The position numbers and the translations under genes were made by a program. Below are positions 686-44,750 of a stretch of 60,465 bases of DNA, in pieces. Source of the stretch: a virus (Duplodnaviria; Heunggongvirae; Uroviricota; Caudoviricetes). How positions within the stretch are numbered: position 1 is the first letter of the stretch; every line of letters begins with the position of its first letter. The stretch lies in the IMG/VR virus record IMGVR_UViG_3300031994_001875, positions 72,147-132,611 of that record, one strand, 5' to 3'. The notes under the pieces were generated by a model. The model had not been told where the DNA came from. It worked only from the letters and a program-made list of their open reading frames with translations, and searched no databases.

Positions 686-751
686 AATATAGTAAATTTT
701 ACTGTGTTTGTCAATGGATTTTATGGATTTTTATGTAAAATTATGTTTACA
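686..751 (-). promoter_or_regulatory. sigma70-type early promoter with upstream TGTAAA-N6-TTTACA operator
   Basis: TTGACA 714-709, 17 bp, TATATT 691-686; palindrome 734-751, 19 bp upstream of -35. Confidence 0.85.
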
Positions 752-1056
752 TTACAATTAAAATCCGTTTTTATATTATCCAGTTTATTCTCAATAATTG
801 AGTTCTTTGCCAGTTGAATTAGTTTTGCTACATGTTCACGAAGTTTAGTTTCATCGTAATATGCTTCAGCTCCCCAAAAACATTTTTCTTTCTCGTTGAA
901 TGACATCGCAGATAAGATACTTCCGTCTTTGAAATTACTAGCAATTACAAACCCAGGAAAATGTTGATACTTCCCTACACTACAGTCATCGTGAACTGTA
1001 ATCGTTAAACCAAAATCTTGTGCGACCTGGTTAAAGATATTAGAACATGCTACCAA
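721..1056 (-). CDS. DF-tail family protein (with C-terminal run-on)
   Basis: ...LDNIKTDF followed by 12 extra residues reading through the operator. Confidence 0.75.
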   Translation of the reverse strand: MVACSNIFNQVAQDFGLTITVHDDCSVGKYQHFPGFVIASNFKDGSILSAMSFNEKEKCFWGAEAYYDETKLREHVAKLIQLAKNSIIENKLDNIKTDFNCNVNIILHKNP

Positions 1057-1762
1057 TTTGCCATCCTAGATTGTATTTGTCATTTGCTTCTTTACAGAGA
1101 ACTTCAATATCACCACCTGCTAAAATCTTCTTTCGCAATTCCAACAGAACTGGTTCATATTCTTTCTTGTTCAGTTCCATAAACGCATCAAACTTATCAA
1201 TTTCGGAACTGAATTCGTCAAAATTCCATTCCTTGTTATCCCAATATCGGTAGTTAGTTGGGCATGTGGCGACTGGAACCATAATGCCATCAATGGCTTC
1301 TTCACCGAGTTCTTTATCAATTTGTGCGGAAAAATCGGGGATTGTATAACCTGGCATTTCCATTTTAGTAACGATAATTGGTTTCTTTAATCTGATCTGG
1401 TTCTTGTTTCGTGTACCAAGCCAAATCTTCAAACAAGGACCATTACTAGCATACTTTGTTAGTGTTGGGTCAAAATAGTTAAAATTGTCAATGGTGGGTG
1501 CGATAATTTCATAAAAATCTTCACCATTATCAAACTGGTTGTATAACTTTGTTCGCATTTCATCAGGTGTGAGAATTGGATTGAGTTTACCGCCGAGGTC
1601 AGTATTACCCCAGGCTTTACAACCATACTTTTCACACAATTCATAAATCTTATTATATGCTAACAACCATTCACCAATGGCTTCAGGATTCTTAACATCC
1701 TTTGGGTCATAACTGTCCGCATCGGGATAGTGACGATAATACTTATCTTCCAATACCATCAT
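1040..1762 (-). CDS. hypothetical protein
   Basis: 240 aa ORF, GGAG SD, coupled to neighbour. Confidence 0.75.
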   Translation of the reverse strand: MMVLEDKYYRHYPDADSYDPKDVKNPEAIGEWLLAYNKIYELCEKYGCKAWGNTDLGGKLNPILTPDEMRTKLYNQFDNGEDFYEIIAPTIDNFNYFDPTLTKYASNGPCLKIWLGTRNKNQIRLKKPIIVTKMEMPGYTIPDFSAQIDKELGEEAIDGIMVPVATCPTNYRYWDNKEWNFDEFSSEIDKFDAFMELNKKEYEPVLLELRKKILAGGDIEVLCKEANDKYNLGWQIGSMF

Positions 1763-1776
1763 AATTGAAATTCTCC

Positions 1777-2148
1777 TTATTTCATTGGATGTTTGAGTTT
1801 AATTTCTTTAATAACTTGTATAGATTGTGCTATATATGTTCTGCCATCTAAACATTTAACTGTTATCGGACTATTCTTACCCGAATAGTATCGTCCTTCA
1901 CATGTTTCACCATTTGGTTCAATATGAATAACATAAGCAGTTCTTTGTCTTTCTTCTGCTGACTCTCGGTCCCATTTAAACATATAATGGCACCCGACGA
2001 TTTCTAACACATACAAAATACCAATTATTACAAAAACAACTTTTTCGCTGAAATATCCTTCCAACTCAGCACCAGCGAAAAAATTAAATAGTGTGCCTAA
2101 AACACCAACCATCAATAATATCATAACTATTTCTTTAAAAATATCCAT
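1777..2148 (-). CDS. membrane protein, two N-terminal TM segments
   Basis: Two hydrophobic stretches; TAATG coupling. Confidence 0.7.
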   Translation of the reverse strand: MDIFKEIVMILLMVGVLGTLFNFFAGAELEGYFSEKVVFVIIGILYVLEIVGCHYMFKWDRESAEERQRTAYVIHIEPNGETCEGRYYSGKNSPITVKCLDGRTYIAQSIQVIKEIKLKHPMK

Positions 2149-2525
2149 TAGAAATCTTCCTTGATTTTATCAATGTCAATCTGATTTACATAGGCTTTCA
2201 AATCTTTTATACTCTCAGTTAACATCTTTTTAAATTCTTCAAAGTTCTTTGGATGTTTAGCAGCATATTCTCCGTTTTCAACGCGCTGGTAAATTTCCAT
2301 AAATTCATCAAACCCATTAGTAAATTCATAGATTGAAGGTTCTATTTCAGTTGGTTTCATTGGTTCTGTCAAATCAACCAAATAGAATGTATACTGCCCA
2401 TGTTTGAATGACCAACCATTAGTCTGACTATCATTATCATAATCTTCTTCATCAGAACTATTATAATATAGTCCCTGGTCTTTCATAAACTGGCGGTAAT
2501 CTTTTAATGTAACTTTTTTCTTCAT
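2148..2525 (-). CDS. DF-tail family protein
   Basis: ends IDKIKEDF. Confidence 0.8.
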   Translation of the reverse strand: MKKKVTLKDYRQFMKDQGLYYNSSDEEDYDNDSQTNGWSFKHGQYTFYLVDLTEPMKPTEIEPSIYEFTNGFDEFMEIYQRVENGEYAAKHPKNFEEFKKMLTESIKDLKAYVNQIDIDKIKEDF

Positions 2526-3460: not shown

Positions 3461-3880
3461 TTATTTGAAATCTTTGTCAGCATCCATTTCTAGTTTGTTT
3501 GCTTTTTGTTTCTTGTTATGTGTTTCTAAAAAAGTGATATGGGAATCAAAATCGTCAATTTGTTTACGGAATTTCTTCAGTCGCCATTTCACCAAGAACA
3601 AATAAAATTCGTGTTCACTTGAGTGCCAATCTTCAGGTTTGATAGTATTATTTTCAACATTCATTGATAATTCAGGATACAAATTAATTTTCTTTACATA
3701 CTGAACACCATCTCTTGTAATAATATCTTCAAATTCAATATAGCCAACTGGTACTTTACCCTGTTTGCATCGTGTATCGTATGTAAGAATTACGAATCTC
3801 TTTGAGTAATTGTATGTACACAATTCAATCAAATAGCCGTATTTATTACACACTTTTTCTACTTTGTCATAACGAAACAT
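3461..3880 (-). CDS. DF-tail family protein
   Basis: ends LEMDADKDFK. Confidence 0.8.
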   Translation of the reverse strand: MFRYDKVEKVCNKYGYLIELCTYNYSKRFVILTYDTRCKQGKVPVGYIEFEDIITRDGVQYVKKINLYPELSMNVENNTIKPEDWHSSEHEFYLFLVKWRLKKFRKQIDDFDSHITFLETHNKKQKANKLEMDADKDFK

Positions 3881-3883: not shown

Positions 3884-4102
3884 CTATCCCCTGAAAATGT
3901 AGCCGTGTTCTTTCCAGTCTACATAGGTCATAAATCCCCAAATGATAGCGGAAATTGGGCAACAGAAAATATTGGCTAATGTAATGATTACATCTGTAAT
4001 GAGCATGAACTTTAGCATATTCGTGCTTCGCAGGAATAGCCCCAGGAATGGCCCGAGATGAACTACAATGTTAGCAATCATTAACAGTGAAATCAATTCC
4101 AT
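3884..4102 (-). CDS. small membrane protein
   Basis: 72 aa, 2-3 hydrophobic segments. Confidence 0.65.
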   Translation of the reverse strand: MELISLLMIANIVVHLGPFLGLFLRSTNMLKFMLITDVIITLANIFCCPISAIIWGFMTYVDWKEHGYIFRG

Positions 4103-5223
4103 TAGTCATTCTCCTTCTTGCGAAGCCAATCCTTGATAATCATTTCGTGGTGGAAAGCCAGCTTTGGCAAATCGTTAATGTTGAACCAACGATGTTCAGC
4201 AGCATCGTCATCAGCTTTGGCCTTGTCCATCATCTTCTTTGGAATACGAACACTAAACGCAGTATCAACAATCTTCATACGCGGGTCAAAATTGTGTCCA
4301 TAGGTCTTAATTTGTACGAACTGTTCCGGGTCCATATCAAGAGATGTTTCTTCACGAAGTTCTCGGGCAGCACCATAATTCAAATCTTCGTCGGTCTTTT
4401 CAAAGAAACCACCAGGGAGTGCCCAAAAGTTTTGGAATGGAGGTTTCTTTCTACGAATTAGCAAAATCTGTTCGCCATTGTAAGCAATCGTATCTGTGGT
4501 GACCGATGGTTCACCCCAACCATTCTTCTGCTTGGCTACTGCGTAATCCTGAAGAAATTTTGCTTCTTCCTTGTCATAGTCAAACGAATTTTGGTTGTAG
4601 AGTTTGTGTTCCTTGATATAACGGAAAGCCTGGTGAGTGATATAATTCTTCACATCTTCATAGTGGCAATCGGGGTTGCGGGAAAGAATTTCACGAACCT
4701 GAGACGAACTAACAGAATGGGTAATGTTGAAAGTTGTAAATTCAACATTCACACCAAACTTTGGCATAGTATGAACCACACCATTATCATTGAAGCCCTG
4801 TTCAAATCCCATTCGGCGGAAAACCAAAAAATTGAAATGCTTCAAAAGCAAATCCCAGTTCACCCATTTGGCATCACACAAAGCCTTCCATTCATCTTCA
4901 CCAACAACAATCGTAATGTCCTTCATGGTCAAACCATTGTTAGCTGCGATATAATCACACAAGAACTTGTATGTCCTATCACTCTGGCTCTTAACTTCAA
5001 TGTTGCCCTTTTCCATATCAAACTTGGAATGGAGCATTTCAAACACCATAGCCATTCGGTCGGAACCGAGAGCCTTGTAATTCTTTTCGTCATTGTTTAC
5101 CACACCAATCATGAGTTTATCATTCTCACCAAGGCGCTTGTAAATGGATTTAAGAATGTCAATGTGGGCAATAGTAATTGGGTCAGCGGAAAGACCATAG
5201 TAATAAATCATAATTAGTTCCAT
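4102..5223 (-). CDS. nadD: bifunctional nicotinate/nicotinamide-nucleotide adenylyltransferase (NadD-like) + Nudix (ADP-ribose pyrophosphatase-like)
   Basis: N-term ADPITIAH (HIGH-like), VVGED, SSSQVR; C-term LPGGFFEKTDEDLNYGAARELREET Nudix box. Confidence 0.85.
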   Translation of the reverse strand: MELIMIYYYGLSADPITIAHIDILKSIYKRLGENDKLMIGVVNNDEKNYKALGSDRMAMVFEMLHSKFDMEKGNIEVKSQSDRTYKFLCDYIAANNGLTMKDITIVVGEDEWKALCDAKWVNWDLLLKHFNFLVFRRMGFEQGFNDNGVVHTMPKFGVNVEFTTFNITHSVSSSQVREILSRNPDCHYEDVKNYITHQAFRYIKEHKLYNQNSFDYDKEEAKFLQDYAVAKQKNGWGEPSVTTDTIAYNGEQILLIRRKKPPFQNFWALPGGFFEKTDEDLNYGAARELREETSLDMDPEQFVQIKTYGHNFDPRMKIVDTAFSVRIPKKMMDKAKADDDAAEHRWFNINDLPKLAFHHEMIIKDWLRKKEND

Positions 5224-5565: not shown

Positions 5566-6180
5566 TTAATTGAAATCTGATTTAATTTTATCGTAAGTAT
5601 CAATCATTTGTAGTGTTTTTTCTTCAAGTTCTTTAATGGAATCTCGCATTTCTGTTAATTTTTCAAGATTTGCCATAATTCCACCATCTTTAAGCATTTT
5701 ACACAAATGTTTAACACAGTTAAACCCGTTTTTCATTTTTTCTTCACTATCTTTAAGAAATTTTCTTGCTGTAGAAAATCCTGAAAAGTGATTCTCATAA
5801 ACTGGTATCATTCGGTGATAATCATTCTGCTCAACTAAATTATATTTGCCTTCAATGTTAAAGATAAAATACTTACAAACTGTGTTCCAACCATCAACAA
5901 TCCATTTATTATTATTTGGTTCATAACCAAATCTAAAACGCAAACATTCAGCATCTTCCCAGTCTTCAATTAGTGGTGTTTGTTCAATTATCTTACGAAT
6001 TGAAGGTTTCAAATCACCACACCAACCGGTTAATGAGAAATAATCTTTGTCTTTATAATGAGTCAAAGATAATTTGTTTGTTAGATTATAACTAGGAAAT
6101 AGTTTATGGAAAATATCTGCGATAACAGATAAATCTATTTCTTCGTTGCAGTATTGAACATCATTTGTTATAGTAATCAT
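5566..6180 (-). CDS. DF-tail family protein, long coiled-coil type
   Basis: ends YDKIKSDFN; last gene of operon. Confidence 0.8.
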   Translation of the reverse strand: MITITNDVQYCNEEIDLSVIADIFHKLFPSYNLTNKLSLTHYKDKDYFSLTGWCGDLKPSIRKIIEQTPLIEDWEDAECLRFRFGYEPNNNKWIVDGWNTVCKYFIFNIEGKYNLVEQNDYHRMIPVYENHFSGFSTARKFLKDSEEKMKNGFNCVKHLCKMLKDGGIMANLEKLTEMRDSIKELEEKTLQMIDTYDKIKSDFN

Positions 6181-7063: not shown

Positions 7064-7396
7064 TCAATTAAAATCTTTCTTTATGGCTAGTTCATTTACA
7101 AATGCTTTTATTTCTTTAACTAAAAGGTCTGTATTCACATCTTTCTTAATCAATTCAAGAACTTTTGTTGTTATTACATTTTCTGTTTTAGACTTGACTA
7201 TTTCTAAAATATAATCAATATCTAACTTTTGACCTTCAACTGAACAGAAACCTTCGTAATCAAATTCTTCAATAAAAGCCCGTAAAAGATTATTGTTATG
7301 GGTAGAATACAGATTATAAAATTTGAGTAAGTAGACTCCATTATGTTGTATATGGAATCTAATCTCACTCAATTTTTTATAATCCATAACATCCAT
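7064..7396 (-). CDS. DF-tail family protein
   Basis: ends ELAIKKDFN. Confidence 0.75.
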   Translation of the reverse strand: MDVMDYKKLSEIRFHIQHNGVYLLKFYNLYSTHNNNLLRAFIEEFDYEGFCSVEGQKLDIDYILEIVKSKTENVITTKVLELIKKDVNTDLLVKEIKAFVNELAIKKDFN

Positions 7397-8805
7397 TAAG
7401 CGGATTCACCCACTGGAGTGTAGATGTCCTTGAGCCAAACATCCACGAAAGCAGGGAGCAGAGCACGAATTTCTTCAGTAGTCATATCGTCAATGCTCTT
7501 ATAGTTGTAGACCGACTTAACATAGTTGATGTAGCCTTCATCGTGGCACATAGTCTTACCAATGCTATCCGAGAGCTTCACAACTGGCTTGCCATTCACT
7601 TCCACAACCTTCATAACCATGCTCAATGGCTTCTTCTTTGTTCCACATACAGTGGCACCGAGATATGTTCCGATACCGAAAGCAATCTTGATGCGACCAT
7701 TGAAGTGCTTTGCGATGGCGAGAGCCTTGTCAATGTCAAGACTATCACTCCAACATGCCACCTTAGAACGAGGGTCAATGCCCAACTTCTTGTAATGGGC
7801 AATCAACATTTCACCCCAGCGAATTGGGTCACCGCTATCGTGACGGCAACCATCAAAGAGTTTTGCGAACTTGAGACCGAAATCTTCCAAGAAACTCTTG
7901 AAACCATAGTTGTCGCTGAGTGCGATACCCAACTTGCCATCGTATTCGTCTGCCCAATCTGTGAGCTTCTGCTTCTGGGCATTAGCAATAGGAACACTAT
8001 CCAATCCCTGGTAGGTAGCATCCAATTCGTGAGCGAAGGTGCCAATCGCCTTGCAGTTATGCTTAATGGCGAGATACACATTAGATGTTCCAACAAATGC
8101 CGGGCACATAGCCAACATGCGACCAACCATATAATCTTCCCAGTCGCTAGAAATCGTGCGGCGAACAGAGAAATCGGAAATCGTGAAAATAATGCCAGCT
8201 CGGGTAGCAGCATTGACCTTAATAATTTCGTTGTCAAGATTCGTTTTTGCTTTTTCCCAATCAAGTTCTTCATCGGCCATCCAAAGAGCCTGAACGATAT
8301 GGAGAACATAAATTTCAAACGGAGAAACATTCTTTTGAGAACCTTCTGCTTCTACAAAGAGTGTGGTATTCTTCTTGTCAGTAAAACACTTGATATGACG
8401 GCGCTTCAACTGGAAATCTTCAAGAAATTCCACATAATCGTGAGAGAAATAATCCTGCTTCTTAAACCAATCCAATTCCCAAGACTGGAACTTCAAAGAA
8501 CAAAGCCAATCCAATTCCTCGTTAATTCGCTTACAGAGTGGAGCGAGATTCACACCCTTGGTTCGGCACTTAAATTCCCACTTCGCTCTATCGTTTGGGC
8601 GACGGTGAACATAAAATTGCTGCTGGGTGAACTTGTAGAGGTCAGTTTCTGTAAGATAGTTTATGATATGCTTGTGAGCATAAAAATCCGCACCATCATG
8701 TACCTTGAGCCTAGTGGGCTTCTTCGTGGTGGTGGCTACCTTCTTTGCCTGCTTCTGCTTCTTAATGTCATTCTTCTTAATCTGCTTTGCCTTTGTAATT
8801 GCCAT
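7396..8805 (-). CDS. pncB: nicotinate phosphoribosyltransferase
   Basis: TDLYKFT, DFSVRR, GTSN, GTFAHE, RHDSGDP, FGIGT, VKLSD motifs. Confidence 0.93.
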   Translation of the reverse strand: MAITKAKQIKKNDIKKQKQAKKVATTTKKPTRLKVHDGADFYAHKHIINYLTETDLYKFTQQQFYVHRRPNDRAKWEFKCRTKGVNLAPLCKRINEELDWLCSLKFQSWELDWFKKQDYFSHDYVEFLEDFQLKRRHIKCFTDKKNTTLFVEAEGSQKNVSPFEIYVLHIVQALWMADEELDWEKAKTNLDNEIIKVNAATRAGIIFTISDFSVRRTISSDWEDYMVGRMLAMCPAFVGTSNVYLAIKHNCKAIGTFAHELDATYQGLDSVPIANAQKQKLTDWADEYDGKLGIALSDNYGFKSFLEDFGLKFAKLFDGCRHDSGDPIRWGEMLIAHYKKLGIDPRSKVACWSDSLDIDKALAIAKHFNGRIKIAFGIGTYLGATVCGTKKKPLSMVMKVVEVNGKPVVKLSDSIGKTMCHDEGYINYVKSVYNYKSIDDMTTEEIRALLPAFVDVWLKDIYTPVGESA

Positions 8806-8835: not shown

Positions 8836-8901
8836 AATATAGTAAATTGTTAGTCCATTGTCAATAGAAATAATGTAAAATTATGTAAAAATTTATTTAC
8901 A
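8836..8901 (-). promoter_or_regulatory. early promoter + operator
   Basis: TTGACA 8864-8859, 17 bp, TATATT 8841-8836; palindrome 8884-8901 (19 bp); extra half-site 8874-8879. Confidence 0.85.
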
Positions 8902-9601
8902 CTTGGAAATCTTTCATCATTTCTCGTTCTTTTTTGAAATTTTCCATTAACTTGCTATTATATGTGTCCAGTTCTCGCTCTATTTGGTTGCGTTCAGTAC
9001 ACAATTTTCCTATCTTATTATCGTAATCTTTTATTACTAATTTCTTTTGATATGTAAATTCAATCACATCTTGAATTTCTTTTGACTGGCTCCAGGTCAA
9101 TCCCTTTTGAATGGTATCAACTGAGAAATCAATGAATTTTTGAATATACTTTGTTGCTGTCGGAACTGTCATTACTCGTTTTGTAATGACCTGTGGTTCA
9201 ATCCATAAATCAGTAGTGCCCCAAGTATGAATTTCTGTATTATTCAGTTTAGATGTTACAACATCATTAATATAATTGTTGTAATTGCTTAACATATTCA
9301 TTGAAGGAACTCTAACTCTAACTTCTATATCATAACCAACAGCTACACGAATTTCACCACGCAATTTTTCAGCAATCTTTTGAAATCCTGGGTTATCAGC
9401 AAAATTTATTCTATAACACATTTTATCAATATAAATTTTTCCCCTCTCAGAACCACCATCGTATAACTGGTTCACTACAAGTTCTTCACCATTACACTTA
9501 AATGAATCTAAAAATGAATAAATCTCATCATTCATTTTTTCTTTATATCGTGCTATTCGTTTTTTTGTATTGGAAGGGTCTATCAAATCATTTAGTTTCA
9601 T
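8897..9601 (-). CDS. DF-tail family protein, long coiled-coil type
   Basis: ends EREMMKDFQV. Confidence 0.75.
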   Translation of the reverse strand: MKLNDLIDPSNTKKRIARYKEKMNDEIYSFLDSFKCNGEELVVNQLYDGGSERGKIYIDKMCYRINFADNPGFQKIAEKLRGEIRVAVGYDIEVRVRVPSMNMLSNYNNYINDVVTSKLNNTEIHTWGTTDLWIEPQVITKRVMTVPTATKYIQKFIDFSVDTIQKGLTWSQSKEIQDVIEFTYQKKLVIKDYDNKIGKLCTERNQIERELDTYNSKLMENFKKEREMMKDFQV

Positions 9602-9602
9602 A

Positions 9603-9941
9603 TTAAAAATCCTTCTTTATTTCGTTTAAACTTTGTCTTACTTTTTTACCTAAATCTGTTCTAAAAAATAGCCATTCATCAAATCGTGATACAGCACCTT
9701 TGATTACATTATGAACTTCTTCTATATTATCATCAAGTTCATTAAAATCATATTGAAAATCAGTTATAGCATCAATGGATTCAAGGTAATCACTGTAAGA
9801 AAAAACACCATCAATATAAGAAAGCAAAGTTTCCCCATATTTGACTGCCCAAAAATCACTATTTGGTTTTTTGGTTTCTATATTGACTTGAAAGTGTTGA
9901 CTTCTCAACCAATCAATCAAATCTTGATGGATATGTTTCAT
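9603..9941 (-). CDS. DF-tail family protein
   Basis: ends LNEIKKDF. Confidence 0.8.
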   Translation of the reverse strand: MKHIHQDLIDWLRSQHFQVNIETKKPNSDFWAVKYGETLLSYIDGVFSYSDYLESIDAITDFQYDFNELDDNIEEVHNVIKGAVSRFDEWLFFRTDLGKKVRQSLNEIKKDF

Positions 9942-10555
9942 TGAAAATCCTTCTTGGCATCAATAATTAGTTTCAAATTCTTGTAATACTTTTCTTTGTA
10001 ATCTTTTAATGATGTGGCTTTCTCCAAAATTTCTTCTTCTCGCCTTTTGATTTCATCTGCGAAAGTCTGTAAATCTTGTTCTTCAAGAAAATCTTCAATA
10101 TCAGCAATTCGTTTCTTGTATGCTTCAATTTGTTCGCCAATATGTTTAATCAAAGTCTCAACAATTTGGTCATCATTATCCACCTCTACTTTAACATTAT
10201 CCATAAAGAGTTTTTGACTATAAAACCCTGTTGACGAAGGTCCATCTACAGTTTTCATTTTAGTAACATAAGACTTAATGGCGTTAATGTTCAACTGTGG
10301 CAAAAAATCATAAGCTGTGATATTGAATCTCTTTTCTTTATGATTTATCAATGTAATAAAGAAACTGAAGACCCTTGCATCATCGTCAATGTTGAAGAAT
10401 CTAATGGGAATACGATTTTTAATGTCTTTAAAATTAATGAACACATTTGCTTCATTATTGTTATACATTATATTAAATTGAGCTTCTTTAAATCCTAGTC
10501 CGTATGGGTTTAGAATTTTGTTTACAAATGTTACAATCTTACTAGCAGTTCCCAT
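9938..10555 (-). CDS. DF-tail family protein, long coiled-coil type
   Basis: ends IIDAKKDFQ. Confidence 0.8.
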   Translation of the reverse strand: MGTASKIVTFVNKILNPYGLGFKEAQFNIMYNNNEANVFINFKDIKNRIPIRFFNIDDDARVFSFFITLINHKEKRFNITAYDFLPQLNINAIKSYVTKMKTVDGPSSTGFYSQKLFMDNVKVEVDNDDQIVETLIKHIGEQIEAYKKRIADIEDFLEEQDLQTFADEIKRREEEILEKATSLKDYKEKYYKNLKLIIDAKKDFQ

Positions 10556-11220
10556 TAGAAATCCTTCATTACATCAATTTTGAGTTTAATAGCCTGTTGC
10601 ATTTTGCCGTTAATTTCACTTTTACGATAATGTAATTCGCTCAGCTTTTCATTCAATGCAGCAATTTCTTTATCCAAATCGGTCATCTGTGAAGTGTAGT
10701 TGGTTACATCACTATCATTTAGAATGTTGTCAAACATGCTGAATGAATGTTCCACTCGGCCTATAACCTTATTGAGAGTTACAAAAATATCGTCAGTTTC
10801 GTTGTTGTATCGGCACTGTTCGGACTTATAAGACTTGGTAGTAAAAAGATACATTGATGTATCATAGAACTTACCATCATCGTTTTTACCCCTCATTCGT
10901 TTATCAATAAAGAAACGGAAGGTGTCAATGTTTTCTTCTTCCTTCAAGATATGATAAACAATGACTTTTGCGAAATACAACTTACCTAATTTGTTGTAAT
11001 ACTTGAGTTTAATAATTGGTTTGTCAGTTTGAACAAATTCTCGGCATCGGTCAAGAGTTGGTGAATCAATATCGCAATAGCGAATAATGATAGTGTTACC
11101 ATCCACCGGGTGAATTTTCTTGAGCTTAGTCTTTTCTTTTACATCTTTTGAAAACTGGCGTACCAAATCTAAGGTTTGAGCCCGTTGTGCTTCTGCATCC
11201 CAACAATCTATTTTAGCCAT
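10555..11220 (-). CDS. DF-tail family protein, long coiled-coil type
   Basis: ends KIDVMKDF; likely start MAKIDCW. Confidence 0.8.
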   Translation of the reverse strand: MAKIDCWDAEAQRAQTLDLVRQFSKDVKEKTKLKKIHPVDGNTIIIRYCDIDSPTLDRCREFVQTDKPIIKLKYYNKLGKLYFAKVIVYHILKEEENIDTFRFFIDKRMRGKNDDGKFYDTSMYLFTTKSYKSEQCRYNNETDDIFVTLNKVIGRVEHSFSMFDNILNDSDVTNYTSQMTDLDKEIAALNEKLSELHYRKSEINGKMQQAIKLKIDVMKDF

Positions 11221-11887
11221 TGAAGTCATCTCCCAATTTAATAAGGTTCATTACACTCTTGGCAGTCTTGGTTACAAGATTTTTCTTTGCCAGAGTAAGT
11301 TCTTTTTGTTGTTCATTTAATTTAGTCATATTGGTTTTAAAATCACCAGTATGTAAAATCTCATGTATCTTTATGTTGTCTTTAATTTGTTTCTGTAATG
11401 TGTTAATAGTTCCAATAACATGTTGTTTGAAATCTTCCAAATCTTCCAACGAATAAATGTCATATTTCAGTTGGTTGCCTTGAGTCATATAATTTTCGTA
11501 ATCACCAAAACCATAAGGTTTATCATTCTTTCGTAAAGATGCTTTAACAATCTCAGGCATAAATTCATCAGTTATTTCAAAATCATAATACATTTCATTG
11601 TAGATTATGAAATAATCGTCAAGCATATTACAATCATATTCTATGGCACTGTAATTGGTGTAATCACCCCATTCACCACAAGAAACTTTAATTTCATATC
11701 TAAATATGTTATCTGTAATTCTATAACCAGTTGTATAAATTATACCTGGAATAGTCTTGATAACTGTATCAAGAAATGGTACTGGAGTGAACTTCATACC
11801 TTCCCACCATTTAGGATTGCACACAGAAGATTCAGGTACAGTATCGCTCAAATCAACATTTACCAATTCTATTTTATTCAAAAACAT
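11213..11887 (-). CDS. DF-tail family protein, long coiled-coil type
   Basis: ends LIKLGDDFNG. Confidence 0.8.
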   Translation of the reverse strand: MFLNKIELVNVDLSDTVPESSVCNPKWWEGMKFTPVPFLDTVIKTIPGIIYTTGYRITDNIFRYEIKVSCGEWGDYTNYSAIEYDCNMLDDYFIIYNEMYYDFEITDEFMPEIVKASLRKNDKPYGFGDYENYMTQGNQLKYDIYSLEDLEDFKQHVIGTINTLQKQIKDNIKIHEILHTGDFKTNMTKLNEQQKELTLAKKNLVTKTAKSVMNLIKLGDDFNG

Positions 11888-13343: not shown

Positions 13344-13355
13344 TTGTTTTTTACA

Positions 13356-13421
13356 AATATAGAAAATCCACCGACTATTGTCAATGGATTTTTGGCTAAA
13401 CTTTGTAAATTTTTCTTTACA
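13356..13421 (-). promoter_or_regulatory. early promoter + operator
   Basis: TTGACA 13384-13379, 17 bp, TATATT 13361-13356; palindrome 13404-13421 (19 bp). Confidence 0.85.
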
Positions 13422-21158: not shown

Positions 21159-21159
21159 A

Positions 21160-24264: not shown

Positions 24265-24330
24265 AATATAGCAAAAAACACCCAAACTGTCAATAACAAT
24301 CTGGGGTTTTATTGTAAAATAATGTTTACA
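24265..24330 (-). promoter_or_regulatory. early promoter + operator
   Basis: TTGACA 24293-24288, 17 bp, TATATT 24270-24265; palindrome 24313-24330 (19 bp). Confidence 0.85.
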
Positions 24331-33200: not shown

Positions 33201-34102
33201 ACAGAATAAACACTTGGTACACAACCATATATCTTGAATGAACCAAGATTCTTCGCATCAATGTTTTCAATCTTACCATAGTTTCTACCAACCAACAATC
33301 CACAGTTAATATCTCTACCATCATTCTTAATGTGGGTCAAGTTAATTGGCTTTTCACAATCAATAGAAATTCTATTGAAATCACTATGTTTCAAAATGAA
33401 GTTTCTAGCAATACCTTGTGAACCCAAAACACCAATTACACCATTATCAGTGTATTGTGCTTTAACTGTAATATCAAATGTGAAATAGTTACCATCCAAG
33501 ATACCATTGAAAGGGTGTTTTTCGTCATAACCAATAGGTTTAGAAATTACACCGTCAAAGTTATCACCAATAACACCAATAATTTTATCGTTTTGGTTTA
33601 CACGTTCTGCGAACCATTCCAATTCATCCTTGGAACGAATAAAATAGAAACCACTATTTAGATACTGGTCAATATATGGGTTATTTGCTACTGTAGCGGA
33701 ATAGTAATTTTTAAAATTGTTAAAGTTATCCTTTGTTACATACATTGGTTTATTATTGAGTTCGTCATCGTCTAAAACTTTAGTCCAAGTGAATGTTAAT
33801 GGAACACCATCAACTAAAGTAGCACCCTTTATTCTAGTAGCATCATCAATTCTAATATATTCTTCTTTACCAAACTGATGTGGGTTAATATAGTTTCCAA
33901 CAATATCAAAACTATTAGGGTTTCTTTTATCAGCAACATTCTTGAAATCCATTATGGTTCTATAATGGTCTAAACGAATATCATCAAATTCAAAGGTCTG
34001 TTTAAATGAGTCTGCAACTGGAATGAATGTCCAGGTATCAGCTGATGGAACATTACCTTCTAAATATCTTTTCTTAAAATCGTTAAATACAAATGAACTC
34101 AT
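30281..34102 (-). CDS. large virion protein with GLUG-like beta-solenoid region
   Basis: 1273 aa N/Y/T-rich; PFNGILDGN, CGLLVGRNYG, VGTIIGANYG, IGGLAGK repeats. Confidence 0.65.
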   Translation of the reverse strand: MSSFVFNDFKKRYLEGNVPSADTWTFIPVADSFKQTFEFDDIRLDHYRTIMDFKNVADKRNPNSFDIVGNYINPHQFGKEEYIRIDDATRIKGATLVDGVPLTFTWTKVLDDDELNNKPMYVTKDNFNNFKNYYSATVANNPYIDQYLNSGFYFIRSKDELEWFAERVNQNDKIIGVIGDNFDGVISKPIGYDEKHPFNGILDGNYFTFDITVKAQYTDNGVIGVLGSQGIARNFILKHSDFNRISIDCEKPINLTHIKNDGRDINCGLLVGRNYGKIENIDAKNLGSFKIYGCVPSVYSVTNKSDSYKWNETEKIVRKKFDTNNENFMYLNSFCINSPGNICPYVGYFNEGKFADDRLGLCVDTNLSAFDFAVTGQSFYAMFFANGYASWKNSTAYKENNIDWSIRCPSPNSLYLYQLGSMIQYNGSYVGVNTTRNIASNTYNYDLDNNYEAAAIIRNPLYYGVDNYGYFTVRAVGKLDNPQTWVENFNSNLCQKVLGNSGYRDCSALEPEYEMTRVSMRPQPNARAAYNVGTIIGANYGTALNIQVSAIVQNTSNFVGFIGGLAGKQANGYIDQVSVYMDNQLKYDLESKPENGDVVYYKQTPVFSEPVKQYIQGALASASDNDTGKKNLLSMYCEAWYDETRPDAASLEYTVNTATTVTNDVISYKLRPIFVVGGMFGRYIPTYGVNEYYQNMVCVVNNSTVLYKDNYDSTENFKRPENAFGALIGKVDYATTNNSIYFFNSLAFNNCQISALSNVGEPFRYFANHFEENEGWVPDVIDLKDTGDYRSAFSALNSGTCTKKYVGIYEIKNNVIEGVSYTVNSAATALYEGATNKSKQSLSNLGIYWGTDYPIELSAHNGGITQSHEMYQFIPDLLTNNDYRWSNNGGYWGPYDILHQDFYYPNYDATNRFGGYNKRNMASKLIVMNGCYSNVDNWIELYDDYINQWHYMQLPPTSTDLSPEHLSGNYFNAKELYLIKKYWNRVGTHYGYTNKEVSSYLKWDTASADLYSANSGLYLDGLVQDQVDRFIANGTQNTYDGYTTVINVPDGWYNGNQGYIDSPNNANTTAFEYYQLNCYDINTRQYNTPKRFVKNIMKHYNPTWVVNNNASIQWTDKVTFKARNSTDSYFYYTYSATSGSYNQVHTTYNTLENAFAFKLPVTFTASNSMMGYGTDLTLTEQLDESRLSTISLGEYLSPAAIRENINKYGTFNTTSVSSNMNLGGLLVVDSFGRNVMFLDNDQNAPITGNAISFPALDLRINTKKTKKIILEVQ

Positions 34103-36315
34103 TATCTATCCCATCTTTCAAGATAATCTTGAATATCACTATTGTTAGTTGTTGGGTTTGGTCGGTTTGCTAATATACTAATAGTATTTAGTTTGGTATC
34201 TGCTTTATTTTGTGTTAAATTAGCGGCACCATAAATGGTTTCGTCGGTGTTGTCACGAATTGAAGTTGGTTTTTCTTCATCTGTGTTAGTTCCATTAAAT
34301 CGTTTCCAATCACCCATAATTGTTTTATCGTCACCAGCACCAAATATATCTCTACATCTAGCATTAGCATCATCAGCAGAAATAATCATACTTGGGTTGT
34401 TCTCGTTTGGAATACCATAACCATTACCATTCACATGATAAACAAAGTATAATCCAAAATTACCATTAGCCAACTTTGCGACCACAGGGCAATACTGATT
34501 TTGTACACCGTGGCAAGCAGGTCTTGTAGTATCTTCACTAATTGTTTTACCTGAATATGTCTTTATACCATTTACACCAATGCTAACATTAGAAAATAAA
34601 TATCTTTCACCAGTTTGGTAAATCTTTGTATCGTGTAGACTTTGGAACTTTGTATTATAGTTGTTGCTAATTGTATCTCTTGTTAAATACAATGTTCTGT
34701 AATAATACTGATTTATATTACCATCTGGCATACGAATTGGATTACATATATTCCATTCTACGGCTGGACCTTCGGCAAAGAACAAATGAGAATACAAATA
34801 CAATCTTGCTAAACTTTGTATATAACCTGTATTCTTCAAATTCATAATTGTTTCCAACAAATCCCAACCATCTCTACCGTTCCAGCACATTAGATACAAT
34901 ATGTTGTTTCGTTCAACATAAACACACCAATTCTTAATAGTTTCAACCCAGAACCATGACTGTGATTCACTAATAGCATTAAAGGGGTCTTCAATGTTTG
35001 CTTGTGATGCTGTTGTTCCCTTACTTGAATAGTATTCAGTTGGTGTTTGCCATTTCGTTTCAGGGTCATTCAACATTTCTTCTAGGATAGTTTCTGCTGG
35101 TGGGTCGGCAGTATATGTTTTACCAACTTCCGAGTATTGGTAAGTTTTACCATTGTTTCTTTTTACATTCTTATAAGTGAATTTTTTAATACCTGGTATT
35201 TCTTCGTATGGATTAACATCATCCATATAAGTTGTAACCAAGGTATATTTTTCTACAATGTCAATATCAGTAGCACCATTGTTATCAGTAGAAATAATCA
35301 AAGAATTTTTATCTGTTAATGTAGTAGAAGTATTATAAGGGTCTATATCTTCACCTGAGTGGTTATAAACTAAGGTCTTATCACCATTACCAATGAACTC
35401 AGCTAGAATACCAAGTTTTACTGGACTTACTTTATTCCATTTTTCATCCAAATTAACAGGAATATCACTTCTTACGAAACAATAGTGATAATCACTATTG
35501 TAATTACAAATATATGGATAAACGAATACACCAGACCCTGTATATACTTCAGTAATCCCACCTGTTTCTTCACCATTAGAATCACAATTAATAGTTTGTA
35601 ATTTTACTTGTGGGCATCTTCTACTTTGGAATACTGTAGCCCATAGTTCATCAGATAATATATCTTTATTACAGTTGTTTCTATATGTACAGTCTCCCCA
35701 ATAGTGAGCCATTTTCTTTACGATACATCTTTCATCTGATACACCATAATTGGGAACAAATGATTCGGAACTATCAAATCTCAAATCAGGGAAAACAAAT
35801 AAAGGAACTTGTTCTTTTATTGTTTCACCTGTTGCTGGGTCAGTTCCTCTTGATTCTTCTCTATAATCATAGGGAATATTAATTAAAGAATCCCAAGAAT
35901 AAATTTCATCGTCTGTTATTTCAGTATCAGAAGGGGATTGATACCAATTTTTAAGATATGTTTCTTTGAACTTGACTACAATTTTATCATCTTTTAAAGA
36001 TAACCAACTGGCTAGGATAAAACCAATCCCGTGTTCTACTAATAATTTCTTACTGAATAAGAAATGACCGGTATCGTCTTGTAAAATACCATCGTTTGTA
36101 CTAAATTTTTCTACACTTTCACCTGCTGGAGTAGTAGATGTTAATGAATAAACGAATGGAAATCTATTACATTTATAAACATCTTGTGATAAATCGTTCC
36201 CAGCTTTTGTGCGTAGACGAAGTGGGACTGTGTAGTTCATTGTTGTACGCAAGTCCCATAATTTACCATTTTCGTCTGATTCAATGCTATAAATCTTTGT
36301 TCGGGTTTCAGCCAT
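34102..36315 (-). CDS. putative virion protein
   Basis: 737 aa, first gene after TATAAATA site. Confidence 0.6.
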   Translation of the reverse strand: MAETRTKIYSIESDENGKLWDLRTTMNYTVPLRLRTKAGNDLSQDVYKCNRFPFVYSLTSTTPAGESVEKFSTNDGILQDDTGHFLFSKKLLVEHGIGFILASWLSLKDDKIVVKFKETYLKNWYQSPSDTEITDDEIYSWDSLINIPYDYREESRGTDPATGETIKEQVPLFVFPDLRFDSSESFVPNYGVSDERCIVKKMAHYWGDCTYRNNCNKDILSDELWATVFQSRRCPQVKLQTINCDSNGEETGGITEVYTGSGVFVYPYICNYNSDYHYCFVRSDIPVNLDEKWNKVSPVKLGILAEFIGNGDKTLVYNHSGEDIDPYNTSTTLTDKNSLIISTDNNGATDIDIVEKYTLVTTYMDDVNPYEEIPGIKKFTYKNVKRNNGKTYQYSEVGKTYTADPPAETILEEMLNDPETKWQTPTEYYSSKGTTASQANIEDPFNAISESQSWFWVETIKNWCVYVERNNILYLMCWNGRDGWDLLETIMNLKNTGYIQSLARLYLYSHLFFAEGPAVEWNICNPIRMPDGNINQYYYRTLYLTRDTISNNYNTKFQSLHDTKIYQTGERYLFSNVSIGVNGIKTYSGKTISEDTTRPACHGVQNQYCPVVAKLANGNFGLYFVYHVNGNGYGIPNENNPSMIISADDANARCRDIFGAGDDKTIMGDWKRFNGTNTDEEKPTSIRDNTDETIYGAANLTQNKADTKLNTISILANRPNPTTNNSDIQDYLERWDR

Positions 36316-40354: not shown

Positions 40355-40773
40355 AATTTCTCCATATAGTCAATTACTCGTTTACATTCTGCTTCAATTT
40401 CTTCAATAGTCCACTTCTTTCCTCGTTCAATAGAAAGACCAATCATTGAATCCTTTGGATAACTGCAATAATCACCAAAATGGGCATAATCCCAACCAAC
40501 CCAATATGCTTCAGGTTCGCCAAAACTTTCTTCATCCACAAAATCACTAAATGTAAATCCACCATGCGGATTACAACCAGGCCATGTAAATGATATTTTG
40601 TCATAATTCATATCATACCATTTTTCGCCTTCATTTACCCTTACATAAGCAGTTGGGTGGCTACCCATTACACTATAAATTACATACATGTGGTTCTTGT
40701 AAGTATCTTTCTTGATTACTTCATTTGGAACAACATTTGAATTGTATTCTGCTATGTAAGGAAATTCGGTCAT
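40351..40773 (-). CDS. hypothetical phage protein
   Basis: HGGFTF, WVGWDYAHFGDY motif. Confidence 0.7.
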   Translation of the reverse strand: MTEFPYIAEYNSNVVPNEVIKKDTYKNHMYVIYSVMGSHPTAYVRVNEGEKWYDMNYDKISFTWPGCNPHGGFTFSDFVDEESFGEPEAYWVGWDYAHFGDYCSYPKDSMIGLSIERGKKWTIEEIEAECKRVIDYMEKL

Positions 40774-41150
40774 GTAAAATCCTCGTTTGCGTTTTCTAAA
40801 AGTAATTCTTGACGATATTTTTTATACTGTGTTAAATGATTTTCAATCTGTTGGTTCACATGTTCCAAAATTTTTGAAATAATACACACATTAACATCAG
40901 TAGTTTCTATGGTTCGTGTACACAACGAAGTGATAACATAATCTATTAAACTACCAAAAGCGAATTTCTGTAATTGCGTAAATTCGTAAATCTCGCACTT
41001 TTCTCCAATTAGTTCAACTGCGTATTGTTTTGGAAATTGAGCCATTACTTGACTAATGGGCTTAATACGAATACTAAACCCAAATGTATTTTGGCTAAAT
41101 TCAAAATACTCATATTTCAAACACAGTTCTTTTATCTTATCGTAATTCAT
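40770..41150 (-). CDS. DF-tail family protein
   Basis: ends LENANEDFT. Confidence 0.8.
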   Translation of the reverse strand: MNYDKIKELCLKYEYFEFSQNTFGFSIRIKPISQVMAQFPKQYAVELIGEKCEIYEFTQLQKFAFGSLIDYVITSLCTRTIETTDVNVCIISKILEHVNQQIENHLTQYKKYRQELLLENANEDFT

Positions 41151-42326: not shown

Positions 42327-42698
42327 TTAATTGAAATCTGATTTGATTTTTTCAATGTTCATTTGAACTGTCATTTTCTTTTTCATTTCTTGTAATTGGG
42401 AAAATATACAATAAAATTTTCTTATTTTCGGTTCAAATTCAGTAAATTTGATATATTCTTCGCTATCGTTATAATATAAATTCAAATCAGCATCAATTAC
42501 AATGTTTAATGTAGCAACCACATGCTTGCTATTGTGACGCCAAACAAAAAATGCCTCTCTGTCATTTTCATATTCTTCCATATAATCATCACCATTAAAA
42601 ACCCAGTCTTTTGGAAGATAGAAGTAATAATCTTTTTTGTAAACTTCATAATCAAGATTTAGTTCTTTTGCTAAGTTTAGTACTTTTTTAATATCCAT
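42327..42698 (-). CDS. DF-tail family protein
   Basis: ends IEKIKSDFN. Confidence 0.8.
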   Translation of the reverse strand: MDIKKVLNLAKELNLDYEVYKKDYYFYLPKDWVFNGDDYMEEYENDREAFFVWRHNSKHVVATLNIVIDADLNLYYNDSEEYIKFTEFEPKIRKFYCIFSQLQEMKKKMTVQMNIEKIKSDFN

Positions 42699-43090
42699 TA
42701 GAAATCCTCGCTTGCTTTAATTACTAAACCGAGTTCGTCAGCTTTCTTCTTTACATCTAACAAACTATTAGCCATTTCAACCATATATGAAACAATGGCT
42801 TCCAATCGTTCTAATGTACCTACTTCTTCACTGTGTTCAAATTGAGCTGACCATCCATTACCAACACCGGCTTTTACCAAATAAGATGTGTAAACTAGAA
42901 TTGTTTTGCTATTCTCGCTCCAATCAAACAAATCATCTCTATAATCGGTGTCATTTTCATCATCCAAAAGACCTAACTTTGGCAAAAAGAAATAATAACA
43001 ACCTTCTATTTCTTCATGGTTCAAACCATACTTTTCAGCCAACGCAAAAATCTTTTCTCTTGGAAATCCTGTATTTTTCTTCTTACCCAT
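42698..43090 (-). CDS. DF-tail family protein
   Basis: ends VIKASEDF. Confidence 0.8.
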   Translation of the reverse strand: MGKKKNTGFPREKIFALAEKYGLNHEEIEGCYYFFLPKLGLLDDENDTDYRDDLFDWSENSKTILVYTSYLVKAGVGNGWSAQFEHSEEVGTLERLEAIVSYMVEMANSLLDVKKKADELGLVIKASEDF

Positions 43091-43492
43091 TTAAAAATCC
43101 TGCTTGATTGAGTTTATCTTTAAATCCATTCTAATTTTCTTTTCCATAATTTCAGCCAAGTCCAATGCTCTAATTTGTTTCTTGATGAAATTTTCCAATT
43201 CAACACAATCGTTAATATGTGTGCCTAATGGATATTCAGTAATAAATCTACATGTAACTGTGTTATCCGAAGCATCGTAAACTGTTTCTAGTTTTTCAAA
43301 ACAAGCAAAAAATGTTATCTCGCCATTAAATATAGTAAACTTGAACAATTTATCACTATCATTAGTCAATAATGAATGGTCTAAATAGACTGAACAGTCC
43401 CATACATCATTTGTTTGGACTTTTATTATACGCAAATTGTATTTGTTACTCAATTCTAAAATTTCTTTTTCTGTTATGTTAGTCAAAATCAA
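43091..43492 (-). CDS. DF-tail family protein
   Basis: ends INSIKQDF. Confidence 0.8.
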   Translation of the reverse strand: MILTNITEKEILELSNKYNLRIIKVQTNDVWDCSVYLDHSLLTNDSDKLFKFTIFNGEITFFACFEKLETVYDASDNTVTCRFITEYPLGTHINDCVELENFIKKQIRALDLAEIMEKKIRMDLKINSIKQDF

Positions 43493-43790
43493 CCTCCATT
43501 TCTTTTATAGTTTGATTGACCTTAAATTCTTTCAAGAACTTAACATATTTGTCAATGAACTGTGGATTTGCCATTTCGCCATCTCGCCATTCAAACCCAC
43601 CTGAGTTGTTGGTTTCAACAAATGCTATCATATCCATTCCTTCACCACTCAATGTATAAATGGCTACTGGAATAGTTCCATACATCATATAATAAGTCAT
43701 AAAGACCAAACCGTGGATTGCTTTATCTTGATATTTCAAATAAGTTAATCCACGATTTACCAATTCATTTTTTAATTCTTGTCCAGTCAT
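43479..43790 (-). CDS. DF-tail family protein
   Basis: ends IKEMEVDFD. Confidence 0.8.
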   Translation of the reverse strand: MTGQELKNELVNRGLTYLKYQDKAIHGLVFMTYYMMYGTIPVAIYTLSGEGMDMIAFVETNNSGGFEWRDGEMANPQFIDKYVKFLKEFKVNQTIKEMEVDFD

Positions 43791-44104
43791 TGGAAATCCT
43801 TGTTAATTCGTTCAAATTCTCTGTTTTGGGCTAATTTCATTTTATCAGTGGTGATAAATTTAATCAGCTTCATTTCTTCACCTTCTTTAAATGACTTTTT
43901 TATTTCATCATTATCATTAAGGGATACTGTGGCTTCATATTCATTTGGTGAATTATAATTATAGGAGGCATCTACAGTAATAGAAAAATCGTTATTAGTA
44001 TAATAGCACCATTCGTAATCTCTTTGAGAAGAACAATCATCAATACTCAATGGTATATTATGTTGTTCAAATAATCTGTCTAATACTTTTGTATCTTTGT
44101 TCAT
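43787..44104 (-). CDS. DF-tail family protein
   Basis: ends FERINKDFQ. Confidence 0.8.
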   Translation of the reverse strand: MNKDTKVLDRLFEQHNIPLSIDDCSSQRDYEWCYYTNNDFSITVDASYNYNSPNEYEATVSLNDNDEIKKSFKEGEEMKLIKFITTDKMKLAQNREFERINKDFQ

Positions 44105-44412
44105 AAGAAATCCTTTTTAATTTGTTCTAATGCCCATTGTTCTTTTAGTATCAATTTATCTGTTGTAATGAACTTCATCATTTCATTTTCTTGCCCAAAT
44201 ACAAACTGCTTGGCATATTCAACATTATCATATAAAAGTACAGTTGCTTCATATTCAACATGTTTGTCAAAATAGTATTCAACAACAACATCAACATCGC
44301 CTTCTTCATTTTCATAGATACACCAGTAGCAATCTTCTTGTGTACCACCATCACAATTTTCCATTTTCAACTGATGGTCTAAAAATAGTTTTTCTAATAG
44401 TACTGATCTCAT
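44101..44412 (-). CDS. DF-tail family protein
   Basis: ends LEQIKKDFL. Confidence 0.8.
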   Translation of the reverse strand: MRSVLLEKLFLDHQLKMENCDGGTQEDCYWCIYENEEGDVDVVVEYYFDKHVEYEATVLLYDNVEYAKQFVFGQENEMMKFITTDKLILKEQWALEQIKKDFL

Positions 44413-44750
44413 CGGAAATCCTGATTTGCTTTGTTAATTAAATCTTGACTTTGCCATTTCTTGACCTTTTCCAAAATCTTATCACATTCAGCTCGGAAAA
44501 AATCTTCATCCACTTTTTCAATAGTAAATGAACCCACAAGAGAATAATCATAATTTACCAAATTCTTATAGGTCTTTTTCTTGAAAGCCGAAATATGTCT
44601 AATTTTGTGAATGTTTTCAATCACAGATGAAACTTCATACCACATTACAATCGCATTATCCCAACACACAGCATAGTAGGGGTGTCCGGTAGTATAGATT
44701 ACAAAATTATAATCTTTTTTGAGAATGTCTAATGCTCTTGTATGTTCCAT
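44409..44750 (-). CDS. DF-tail family protein
   Basis: ends INKANQDFR. Confidence 0.8.
   Translation of the reverse strand: MEHTRALDILKKDYNFVIYTTGHPYYAVCWDNAIVMWYEVSSVIENIHKIRHISAFKKKTYKNLVNYDYSLVGSFTIEKVDEDFFRAECDKILEKVKKWQSQDLINKANQDFR

Follow-up and report, generated by a model that had tools for sequence, protein, structure and literature searches.

An undescribed and very large family of small phage proteins with a C-terminal helix ending in Asp-Phe

Introduction

We analyzed a 60,465-nucleotide stretch of viral DNA, in the following referred to as the window, which comprises bases 72147-132611 of the 132.6-kb IMG/VR virus contig IMGVR_UViG_3300031994_001875 (33% G+C; judged 35% complete). 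The minus strand holds most window genes, and a large share of these encode small proteins that end in Asp-Phe (DF) followed by zero to two further residues. A first-pass annotation of the sequence had taken this ending as a short terminal motif by which many variable N-terminal domains are linked to one partner. The carriers form a real, very large, and undescribed early paralog family, which provides about a quarter to a third of the open reading frames (ORFs) in a clade of uncultured T4-like jumbo phages of the ruminant gut.

Genes for gp32, UvsX, and a DnaB-like helicase are present on the contig, and an 871-residue ORF ending in GLDDFFV is read as a putative DNA polymerase; also, family B polymerase domains were found on a related contig. 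Syntenic relatives are carried by metagenome contigs of 120-409 kb, and sheep-gut libraries contain near-identical contigs. Given these genes, the synteny, and the sheep-gut matches, the source is consistent with an uncultured T4-like jumbo phage of the ruminant gut (sheep, cattle). These sheep-gut libraries are metatranscriptomes, whose near-identical contigs span family operons and virion-like genes alike, so that DNA carry-over is possible there. As main comparison genome we used a 210-kb relative with a helicase 88% identical to that of the contig. Literature searches for the phage group or for the DF motif returned no description.

Frequency of the Asp-Phe ending

DF followed by zero to two residues ends 72 of the 283 non-overlapping ORFs on the whole contig, with about 3 expected from composition, and thus lies far above chance, as had been proposed. 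The same ending was found in 129 of 423 ORFs of the 210-kb relative and in 19 of 36 ORFs of an unrelated 16.9-kb contig. DF is the commonest dipeptide at C-terminal offsets 0-2 (72 occurrences; the next, KD, has 26) and is unenriched at offsets 3-29. In the 72 contig ORFs, Phe is followed by no residue in 15 cases, by one in 48, and by two in 9.

All 33 minus-strand ORFs listed in the first-pass annotation were confirmed to end in this way at their stop coordinates (33/33); one of them, 13422-13835, was dropped by the non-overlap filter and is seen only in the unfiltered ORF list. The seven tail variants reported in addition (721, 19049, 25398, 22494, 22747, 11887, 25760) are as described. Those at 721, 19049, 25398, and 25760 match the full-length family profile introduced below (E = 1e-9 to 4e-3), and the orthologs of the EF variants 22494 and 22747 read DF. 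Both GAT and GAC, and both TTT and TTC, are in use. The tail marks early, non-enzyme, non-virion proteins, and right of position 44750 the window contains no DF tail.

Family members in the window

All members described here lie on the minus strand, and E-values refer to the family profile. At the left end, the protein of 721-1056 matches over the full length (E 1e-9) and runs on for 12 residues past DF. Two core members follow, 2148-2525 (ending KIKEDF; columns 6-115, E 6e-8) and 2522-2905 (KEDFE; E 3e-12), which overlap the next start by TAATG and ATGA, respectively. Three DF-tailed ORFs in the adjoining region are matched weakly or not at all, namely 3461-3880 (139 residues, DKDFK; E 4.7), where the next gene has its own GGAG site past the stop, the operon-last 5566-6180 (204 residues, KSDFN; no match), with TCA GAT lacking the ribosome-site core and a palindrome next to it, and 7064-7396 (110 residues, KKDFN; E 0.5), with a separate GAGG site past the stop.

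Between 8897 and 14400, seven co-oriented genes for proteins of about 200-235 residues form a paralog subfamily of their own, in which a long C-terminal part is predicted to be coiled-coil-like. The ending is DF in six of these proteins and DM in the seventh. Jackhmmer groups six or seven proteins of about 200 residues from this stretch into a separate cluster, which has counterparts in the 210-kb relative. The protein of 8897-9601 (234 residues, MKDFQV), at an operon end, is linked to the set by jackhmmer, as are those of 9938-10555 (205 residues, KKDFQ; Lys(-14) kept) and 10555-11229 (224 residues, VMKDF), the latter also with a weak, coiled-coil-type PHROG match (E 7.7e-4). The protein of 11213-11887 (224 residues, GDDFNG) served as the jackhmmer seed that recruits seven long members, among them the KDM variant 11887-12492 (201 residues); 13771-14400 (209 residues, LEDFEG) also belongs here by jackhmmer and is only 30% identical to its syntenic counterpart. 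Interspersed are 9603-9941 (112 residues, IKKDF), of which the tail region alone matches the profile (E 0.04), and a ligase gene (12492-13343) described in the last section. The start of 13422-13835 (KDDFE; E 0.11) is uncertain, and a palindrome lies at 13404.

Further to the right, core members are encoded at 15485-15916 (143 residues, SGDFS; E 2e-8; 87.5% identical copy in the 210-kb relative), 16496-16930 (144 residues, DTDFE; E 3e-8), 17461-17811 (116 residues, KEDFE; E 5e-6), 21160-21483 (107 residues, EEDF), and 21483-21923 (146 residues, EKDFK; E 1e-5). The operon-last gene 21160-21483 gives the best profile match (E 9e-16) and has GAA GAT without the ribosome-site core. The protein of 16179-16499 (106 residues, SEDFE) is matched weakly, its orthologs keeping the tail, and that of 19049-19459 runs on for seven residues past DF (E 7.5e-5). 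Two short ORFs with EF tails, 22494-22757 (87 residues) and 22747-22983 (78 residues), have orthologs ending QKDFT or QKDFI and KEDFE or QEDFE, respectively, and are followed by the member 22980-23285 (101 residues, KKDFE; E 1.4e-3).

The genes from 24334 to 27432 are arranged head to tail. This run starts with the core member that was modelled, 24334-24696 (120 residues, IQEDF; 21 orthologs at 69-96% identity, with D and F invariant in the 13 aligned), and continues with 24693-25064 (123 residues, SKDFE; E 0.03), the core member 25061-25411 (116 residues, NKDFK; E 1.5e-8), 25398-25763 (WDF plus an acidic run-on of five residues; E 7e-8), and 25760-26128 (tail variant DNL; full length, E 4e-3). 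The protein of 26128-26634 (168 residues, QEDFN) has a hydrophobic, probably membrane-spanning N-terminal segment and a Lys/Pro-rich linker before the usual C-terminal half, which alone matches the profile (E 4e-4). The last two genes are 26631-26984 (117 residues, IKDFT; E 2e-3) and 26962-27432 (156 residues, EEDFND; E 1.7e-4).

The core member 40770-41150 (126 residues, NEDFT; E 1.2e-5) stands apart from a second head-to-tail run at 42327-44750. There, the uncoupled core gene 42327-42698 (123 residues, KSDFN; E 1.2e-6) is a paralog of the next, 42698-43090 (130 residues, SEDF; E 9e-6), and the core members 43091-43492 (133 residues, KQDF; E 1e-6) and 43479-43790 (103 residues, EVDFD; E 2e-10) follow. 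The protein of 43787-44104 (105 residues, NKDFQ; E 8e-3) is 41% identical to its tandem duplicate 44101-44412 (103 residues, KKDFL), which has 17 database matches at 65-100% identity. The run closes with the core member 44409-44750 (113 residues, NQDFR; E 8.5e-10).

The conserved C-terminal helix

The first-pass annotation was right that the terminal motif is real, but the conserved part comprises about 35 residues rather than eight. When the carriers are aligned at DF, a joint core of 140 proteins has Lys(-14) in 125, Lys or Arg(-7) in 108, and Leu or Ile(-6) in 101, with Ile, Leu, or Met at -3 and more hydrophobic positions back to -29. From -30 to -1 the sequence is Lys/Glu-rich with a heptad-like spacing of hydrophobic residues, and it closes in the pattern [KE][KE]DF[KENQ]. 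D-F is invariant in 196/196 aligned members and Lys(-14) is present in 185/200. K(-14), K/R(-7), and D(0) are thus a conserved charged stripe with heptad spacing.

Homology over the full length

BLASTP, phmmer, and jackhmmer searches with the N-terminal parts alone linked only adjacent pairs, and the full-length homology became visible only by the use of profiles. A first family profile was built from an alignment of 45 paralogs and showed a common N-terminal motif, MTxxE...G. A typical member has 100-140 residues. A short helix at the N-terminus, with the consensus MTxEEFKxLxxKYGL, is followed by four or five strands in which aromatic positions are conserved, and then by a helix of about 35 residues that closes in Asp-Phe plus zero to two polar residues. 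At E < 1e-3, the profile matches 40 ORFs on the contig and 80 in the 210-kb relative, full-length (approximately column 8 to 115) in 33 and 66, respectively. A scan of the genome and its relatives had been suggested for the tail; it does recover the family, but the homology spans the full length and not the tail alone.

A profile search of 1.84 billion representative proteins gave 100 matches at E ≤ 0.001, of which 99 have 88-134 residues and are aligned over most or all of their length. Most of these 99 start with a motif like MTxEEFK...YGL, and 87 end in DF plus zero to two residues; the other 12 run on 3-13 residues past DF. In 200 non-redundant members, the conserved columns are Thr9, Glu12, Gly/Asn21, the aromatic positions 32 and 49, Lys100, Lys/Arg107, and Asp114-Phe115. 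In the strongest covarying pair (columns 19 and 89; z 7.6), a position of the N-terminal helix is coupled to one where the C-terminal helix begins, and the two charges are opposite in 63 cases and alike in 12. Because the two helices covary, the C-terminal helix belongs to the fold.

The family extends beyond the high-copy clade, since members also occur on an ENA contig of 130.6 kb (28.5% G+C). This contig, with genes for family B polymerase, Thy1, and Rnl1, represents a T4-like phage that is more distantly related and has few family members, some of which bear acidic extensions of 3-13 residues past DF.

The idea of many variable N-terminal domains with a portable tag was not supported, as about half of the DF carriers fit one full-length profile (35/72 on the contig; 73/129 in the relative). 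Based on the common N-terminal helix, the conserved aromatic strand positions, and the covarying contact between the N- and C-terminal helices, these matching carriers are paralogs that share one small domain, whose diverged body is what had been read as "variable N-terminal domains". It is accordingly likely, in our judgment, that Asp-Phe invariably caps the C-terminus in a single undescribed protein family and is not a tag on unrelated proteins.

For structure prediction, the 120-residue protein of 24334-24696 was modelled with AlphaFold, giving a helix at 3-12, strands, and a second helix that starts at 83 and runs to the C-terminus (83-119). When only paralogs were aligned, the predicted local distance difference test (pLDDT) of the two helices rises to 70-97, that of the C-terminal helix being 87-97. 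Both models were taken into fold searches (Foldseek against AFDB clusters and PDB, ESM Atlas by shape, VIA-align against 48,161 PDB chains), which gave weak or generic helix-sheet-helix matches, including a DUF4304 protein (template modelling score 0.58), an Imm63 protein, profilin, levivirus coat proteins, the C-terminal domain of Mediator Med17 (Z 8.9), type III secretion chaperones, RWD/E2-like domains, and small phage inhibitors. At a mean pLDDT of 56-65, no fold was assigned from these matches. An ESM Atlas feature search returned only unnamed viral clusters. Homodimer prediction, run for this single protein as two copies with the ortholog alignment, gave a score of 0.01, which speaks neither for nor against a dimer. 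No Pfam match was found for 10 members, no Pfam family is common to more than two of the 99 database members, five small members scanned against PHROGs had no match, and among PDB sequences the best profile match reached only E 0.016.

Several points weigh against a single family. About half of the DF-tailed ORFs are not significant with the full-length profile; in these remaining ORFs, which include the subfamily of about 200 residues and the membrane-anchored member, the tail region is joined to sequence that the profile matches weakly or not at all. The long subfamily (8897-14400) is its own jackhmmer cluster, into which the short family is not recruited. Both structure models are low to middling (mean pLDDT 56 and 65; sheet below 50), with no convincing fold match among the predicted structures. 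The absolute invariance of D-F and a near-invariant Lys 14 residues away exceed the usual needs of a scaffold. Finally, the function is wholly inferred, and early expression is predicted from the promoters. A single family is thus established for the core and extended to the remaining DF-tailed ORFs by inference, and some modularity, or divergence beyond detection, remains.

Selection, turnover, and duplication

In comparison with syntenic orthologs, the Phe codon is identical in 22 cases, synonymous in 6, and non-synonymous in none, and Asp changes only to Glu or back, while the residue following DF is altered in 10 of 21 cases. The D and F codons are hence conserved in orthologs and vary synonymously, in agreement with the earlier view that selection on the tail acts at the protein level. 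The ratio of non-synonymous to synonymous substitution rates (dN/dS) is 0.30-0.39 for the family and 0.26 for its neighbours, and judged from these codon comparisons the family is under purifying but relaxed selection.

A BLAST partner in the 210-kb relative was obtained for only 27 of 70 members, at a median identity of 33% compared to 65% for other proteins; these partners keep the tail. To go by the alignments, members are replaced between related phages much faster than adjoining genes. Five adjacent pairs are still alike outside the tail, and the similar adjacent paralogs in the head-to-tail runs show amplification by tandem duplication.

We propose that the members may be early binding proteins for host takeover or counter-defence, in which a constant two-helix scaffold would carry a fast-changing sheet region. 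The invariant K...K/R...D-F stripe could either staple this scaffold or provide a common contact surface.

Docking as an alternative explanation

An alternative that we regard as unlikely holds that the constant C-terminal helix with K(-14), K/R(-7), D(0), and F(+1) binds one phage or host partner and that the variable remainder binds different targets, which would turn the family, with its more than 100 members, into an array of adaptors or effectors. The invariant D-F and the near-invariant Lys(-14) on a heptad-spaced charged stripe speak for it, as does the presence of the tail region on the 200-residue subfamily and on the membrane-anchored member. In one ortholog set, moreover, the last 23 residues, polar ones included, are almost constant while the remainder diverges to 69% identity. 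However, covariation with the N-terminal helix of the same protein makes the C-terminal helix intramolecular over at least its first half. Averaged over orthologs, constraint on the last 32 codons does not exceed that on the protein middle (dN/dS 0.39 and 0.38). Also, the ending does not lie at a fixed distance from the free carboxylate, and the analysis yielded no candidate partner. It appears doubtful to us that the helix is a docking module by which target-binding domains, more than 100 in number and evolving fast, are plugged into a single phage or host machine (clamp or replisome, RNA polymerase, protease, chaperone). By analogy, such a phage adaptor array might follow the logic of the viral F-box/PRANC families, with the terminal codons dual-coded as ribosome site, a possibility to which we give little weight.

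More specifically, the ending could dock to the replisome, at a sliding clamp of the gp45 type or in the manner of SSB, with LxxIxxDF acting like the tails of T4 gp43, gp33, and gp55 or like a PIP box; we consider this very unlikely. The phage is T4-like, with gp32, UvsX, a DnaB-like helicase, and the family B polymerase of the related contig, and T4 docks three proteins to one clamp by interchangeable hydrophobic-acidic C-termini (PMC2988020). In our reading, the hydrophobic residue at -3 and Phe at +1 are spaced like positions 4 and 8 of a PIP box. On the other hand, the family tail has one aromatic residue and no flexible linker, whereas the phage's own polymerase and three methylase paralogs ([GDE]FFE) have a different ending with two aromatic residues, and more than 100 competitors for one clamp are hard to reconcile with replication. 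A search for a sliding clamp (PF09116, PF02916) on this contig and three related ones, all of them fragments, found none.

Outside the window, this second type of ending comprises the polymerase (GLDDFFV), three DNA-methylase paralogs (GDFFE, DEFFE, EGFFE), and the gp32 homolog with DSDDFF nine residues from its end (contig positions 13352-15967, 12422-13120, 11685-12425, 9041-9778, and 4121-5071). The polymerase and the GDFFE methylase formally fit DF plus two residues, but the FF-type ending differs from the family tail. By their sequence, the FF endings are candidate docking tails for the replisome or clamp, distinct from the family tail.

Operon signals and ribosome binding sites

The window contains 12 exact TGTAAA-N6-TTTACA palindromes (734, 5548, 8884, 13404, 14854, 21141, 24313, 24356, 28634, 45379, 45822, 49197) and two with one mismatch, where about one is expected. 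For 11 of the 12 exact copies, TTGACA-N17-(C)TATATT follows within approximately 20-30 bases on the minus strand; the twelfth (24356) sits just upstream of the palindrome at 24313. Every operon begins at such a consensus sigma70-type promoter (TTGACA-N17-TATATT) right after the palindrome, and on account of these adjoining promoters the family genes are of an early, host-polymerase type. The palindromes mark operon boundaries and may, together with the early promoter, be a unit that acts as terminator or operator. Six operon-terminal family genes precede the palindrome and/or a TTGACA-type promoter instead of a coupled start, which upholds the earlier observation that the tail persists without such a start.

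In translationally coupled members, nAG-GAT gives the ribosome-site core AGGA, with the G of GAT located eight bases before the next ATG in 24 of 34. The codon before GAT ends in G in 23/34 coupled members compared to 3/26 others (p = 1.6e-5), although GAG is rare genome-wide. TAATG and ATGA overlaps use one frame, which explains why DF is followed by no residue or by one. In coupled genes, a codon ending in G is thus selected before GAT, so that the tail doubles as the ribosome binding site of the next gene.

That the tail is solely a by-product of gene packing, i.e. the Shine-Dalgarno site and spacer of the next gene (nAG-GAT-TTY) read in frame, or a cassette junction kept by recombination, is largely refuted and in our estimate scarcely credible, since the overlap with the site in coupled genes, the shared frame, and two unrelated coupled genes ending GGA-TTT (Gly-Phe) are opposed by 33 uncoupled tails, GAA/AAA/TCA-GAT without site core in uncoupled tails, five members with a separate start 4-25 bases downstream, synonymous variation of both the D and F codons, conservation running 35 residues upstream, and 52 coupled non-family genes that encode other endings although 35 have a site core within their last 18 bases. 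Accordingly, of the earlier caveat that chance or Shine-Dalgarno overlap might produce the tail, only the overlap itself stands. The uncoupled tails and the endings of the coupled non-family genes show that the ribosome site is overlaid on the protein motif and is not its cause; for 3461, 7064, and 16179, the next gene even has its own ribosome site after the stop.

Comparison with known systems

In E. coli SSB (DDDIPF) and T7 gp2.5, one hub protein carries a disordered tail, and many partners recognize the carboxylate of its terminal Phe. The first-pass annotation had drawn this analogy, and the family does share Asp and Phe at or near the C-terminus. Otherwise the fit is poor, because Phe is terminal in only 15/72, some relatives run on for 3-13 residues, and DF is preceded by a Lys/Glu-rich helix and not by a flexible acidic linker or coil. 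The modelled tail is helical to the last residue (pLDDT 87-97) rather than disordered, and many carriers in place of one hub represent the inverse logic.

The MGF360/505 proteins of African swine fever virus (ASFV) and the Bcl-2-like and ankyrin/PRANC proteins of poxviruses are large, fast-diverging, lineage-specific families of early non-structural proteins. These multigene families of eukaryotic viruses keep a scaffold or a constant terminal module even as their sequences lose similarity, and their role in host interaction is documented. The DF family resembles them as a fast-diverging early family, but hosts, folds, and scale per genome differ, and a host-interaction role is a proposal here.

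Among phages, the jumbo phages G and 121Q have arrays of more than 30 genes (Hua et al. 2017, PMC5646251), and phage G has about 35 Zn-ribbon copies (Iyer et al. 2021, PMC7824862). As in those arrays, many head-to-tail copies of one small protein are explained by tandem duplication. In contrast, the DF family is far more diverged, with BLAST linking few adjacent pairs, and its DF-tailed ORFs are several-fold more numerous (72 and 129; about 25-30% of ORFs). It is spread over many early operons, is defined by its conserved ends, is unrelated in sequence, and has no Pfam or PHROG model. The kind of family, a large paralog expansion in jumbo phages, is thus already known; the sequence family is new.

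The nearest system with a shared tail and one hub appears, by analogy, to be the clamp-binding tails of T4 gp43, gp33, and gp55, whose interchangeable hydrophobic-acidic C-termini dock to one clamp (Geiduschek and Kassavetis 2010, PMC2988020). In both cases several proteins end in a short acidic-plus-aromatic motif. However, T4 has three proteins of unrelated folds with a divergent flexible linker, and the DF family has more than 100 paralogs with a rigid conserved helix. Small early ORFs in the hyperplastic regions of T4-type phages are flanked by promoter-stem-loop (PeSL) cassettes (PMC2839356, PMC4122927). There, small early genes are exchangeable units edged by short DNA motifs, much as the operons here are bounded by the TGTAAA-N6-TTTACA palindrome and the early promoter; unlike the DF tail, PeSLs are non-coding.

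Should complete genomes of about 400 kb bear out these counts, one unnamed family would account for a quarter to a third of the genes in a widespread group of giant phages of the ruminant gut, several times the 30-35 copies so far called exceptional in jumbo phages. The family is compact and easily recognized and has no database model, although the profile search found 99 significant members among public metagenome and genome proteins; a name for it would give many hypothetical proteins an annotation. With its early promoters, fast turnover, and constant scaffold, it is a good candidate for a toolkit used in host takeover or counter-defence. Also, the ribosome binding site over the invariant Asp codon cleanly illustrates dual coding where operons are tightly packed.

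Further features of the contig

An NAD (nicotinamide adenine dinucleotide)-dependent DNA ligase is apparently split into two genes 6.6 kb apart (window 19948-21063 and 12492-13343), with the adenylation and OB domains in one and the zinc finger, helix-hairpin-helix, and BRCT in the other. An NAD salvage set lies amid the early genes (7396-8805, 4102-5223, and 16931-17461) and consists of a nicotinate phosphoribosyltransferase-family enzyme, a cytidylyltransferase-like and Nudix fusion, and a second cytidylyltransferase-like protein.

Two large neighbouring proteins rich in Asn, Tyr, and Thr are encoded at 30281-34102 (1273 residues) and 34102-36315 (737 residues). Both are without match in Pfam, PHROG, PDB sequences, or the phage database, where megablast and tblastn were run against 50,697 phage records. 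The 1273-residue protein is only about 50% identical to its syntenic counterparts, compared to 87-89% for the adjoining helicase in other related contigs, and from their composition and divergence the pair are probably fast-evolving, fibre-like virion proteins. At 52000-58000 the G+C content drops to 23-28%, with a strand switch around 53105-55217, unlike the rest of the window; this block may be a recent acquisition.

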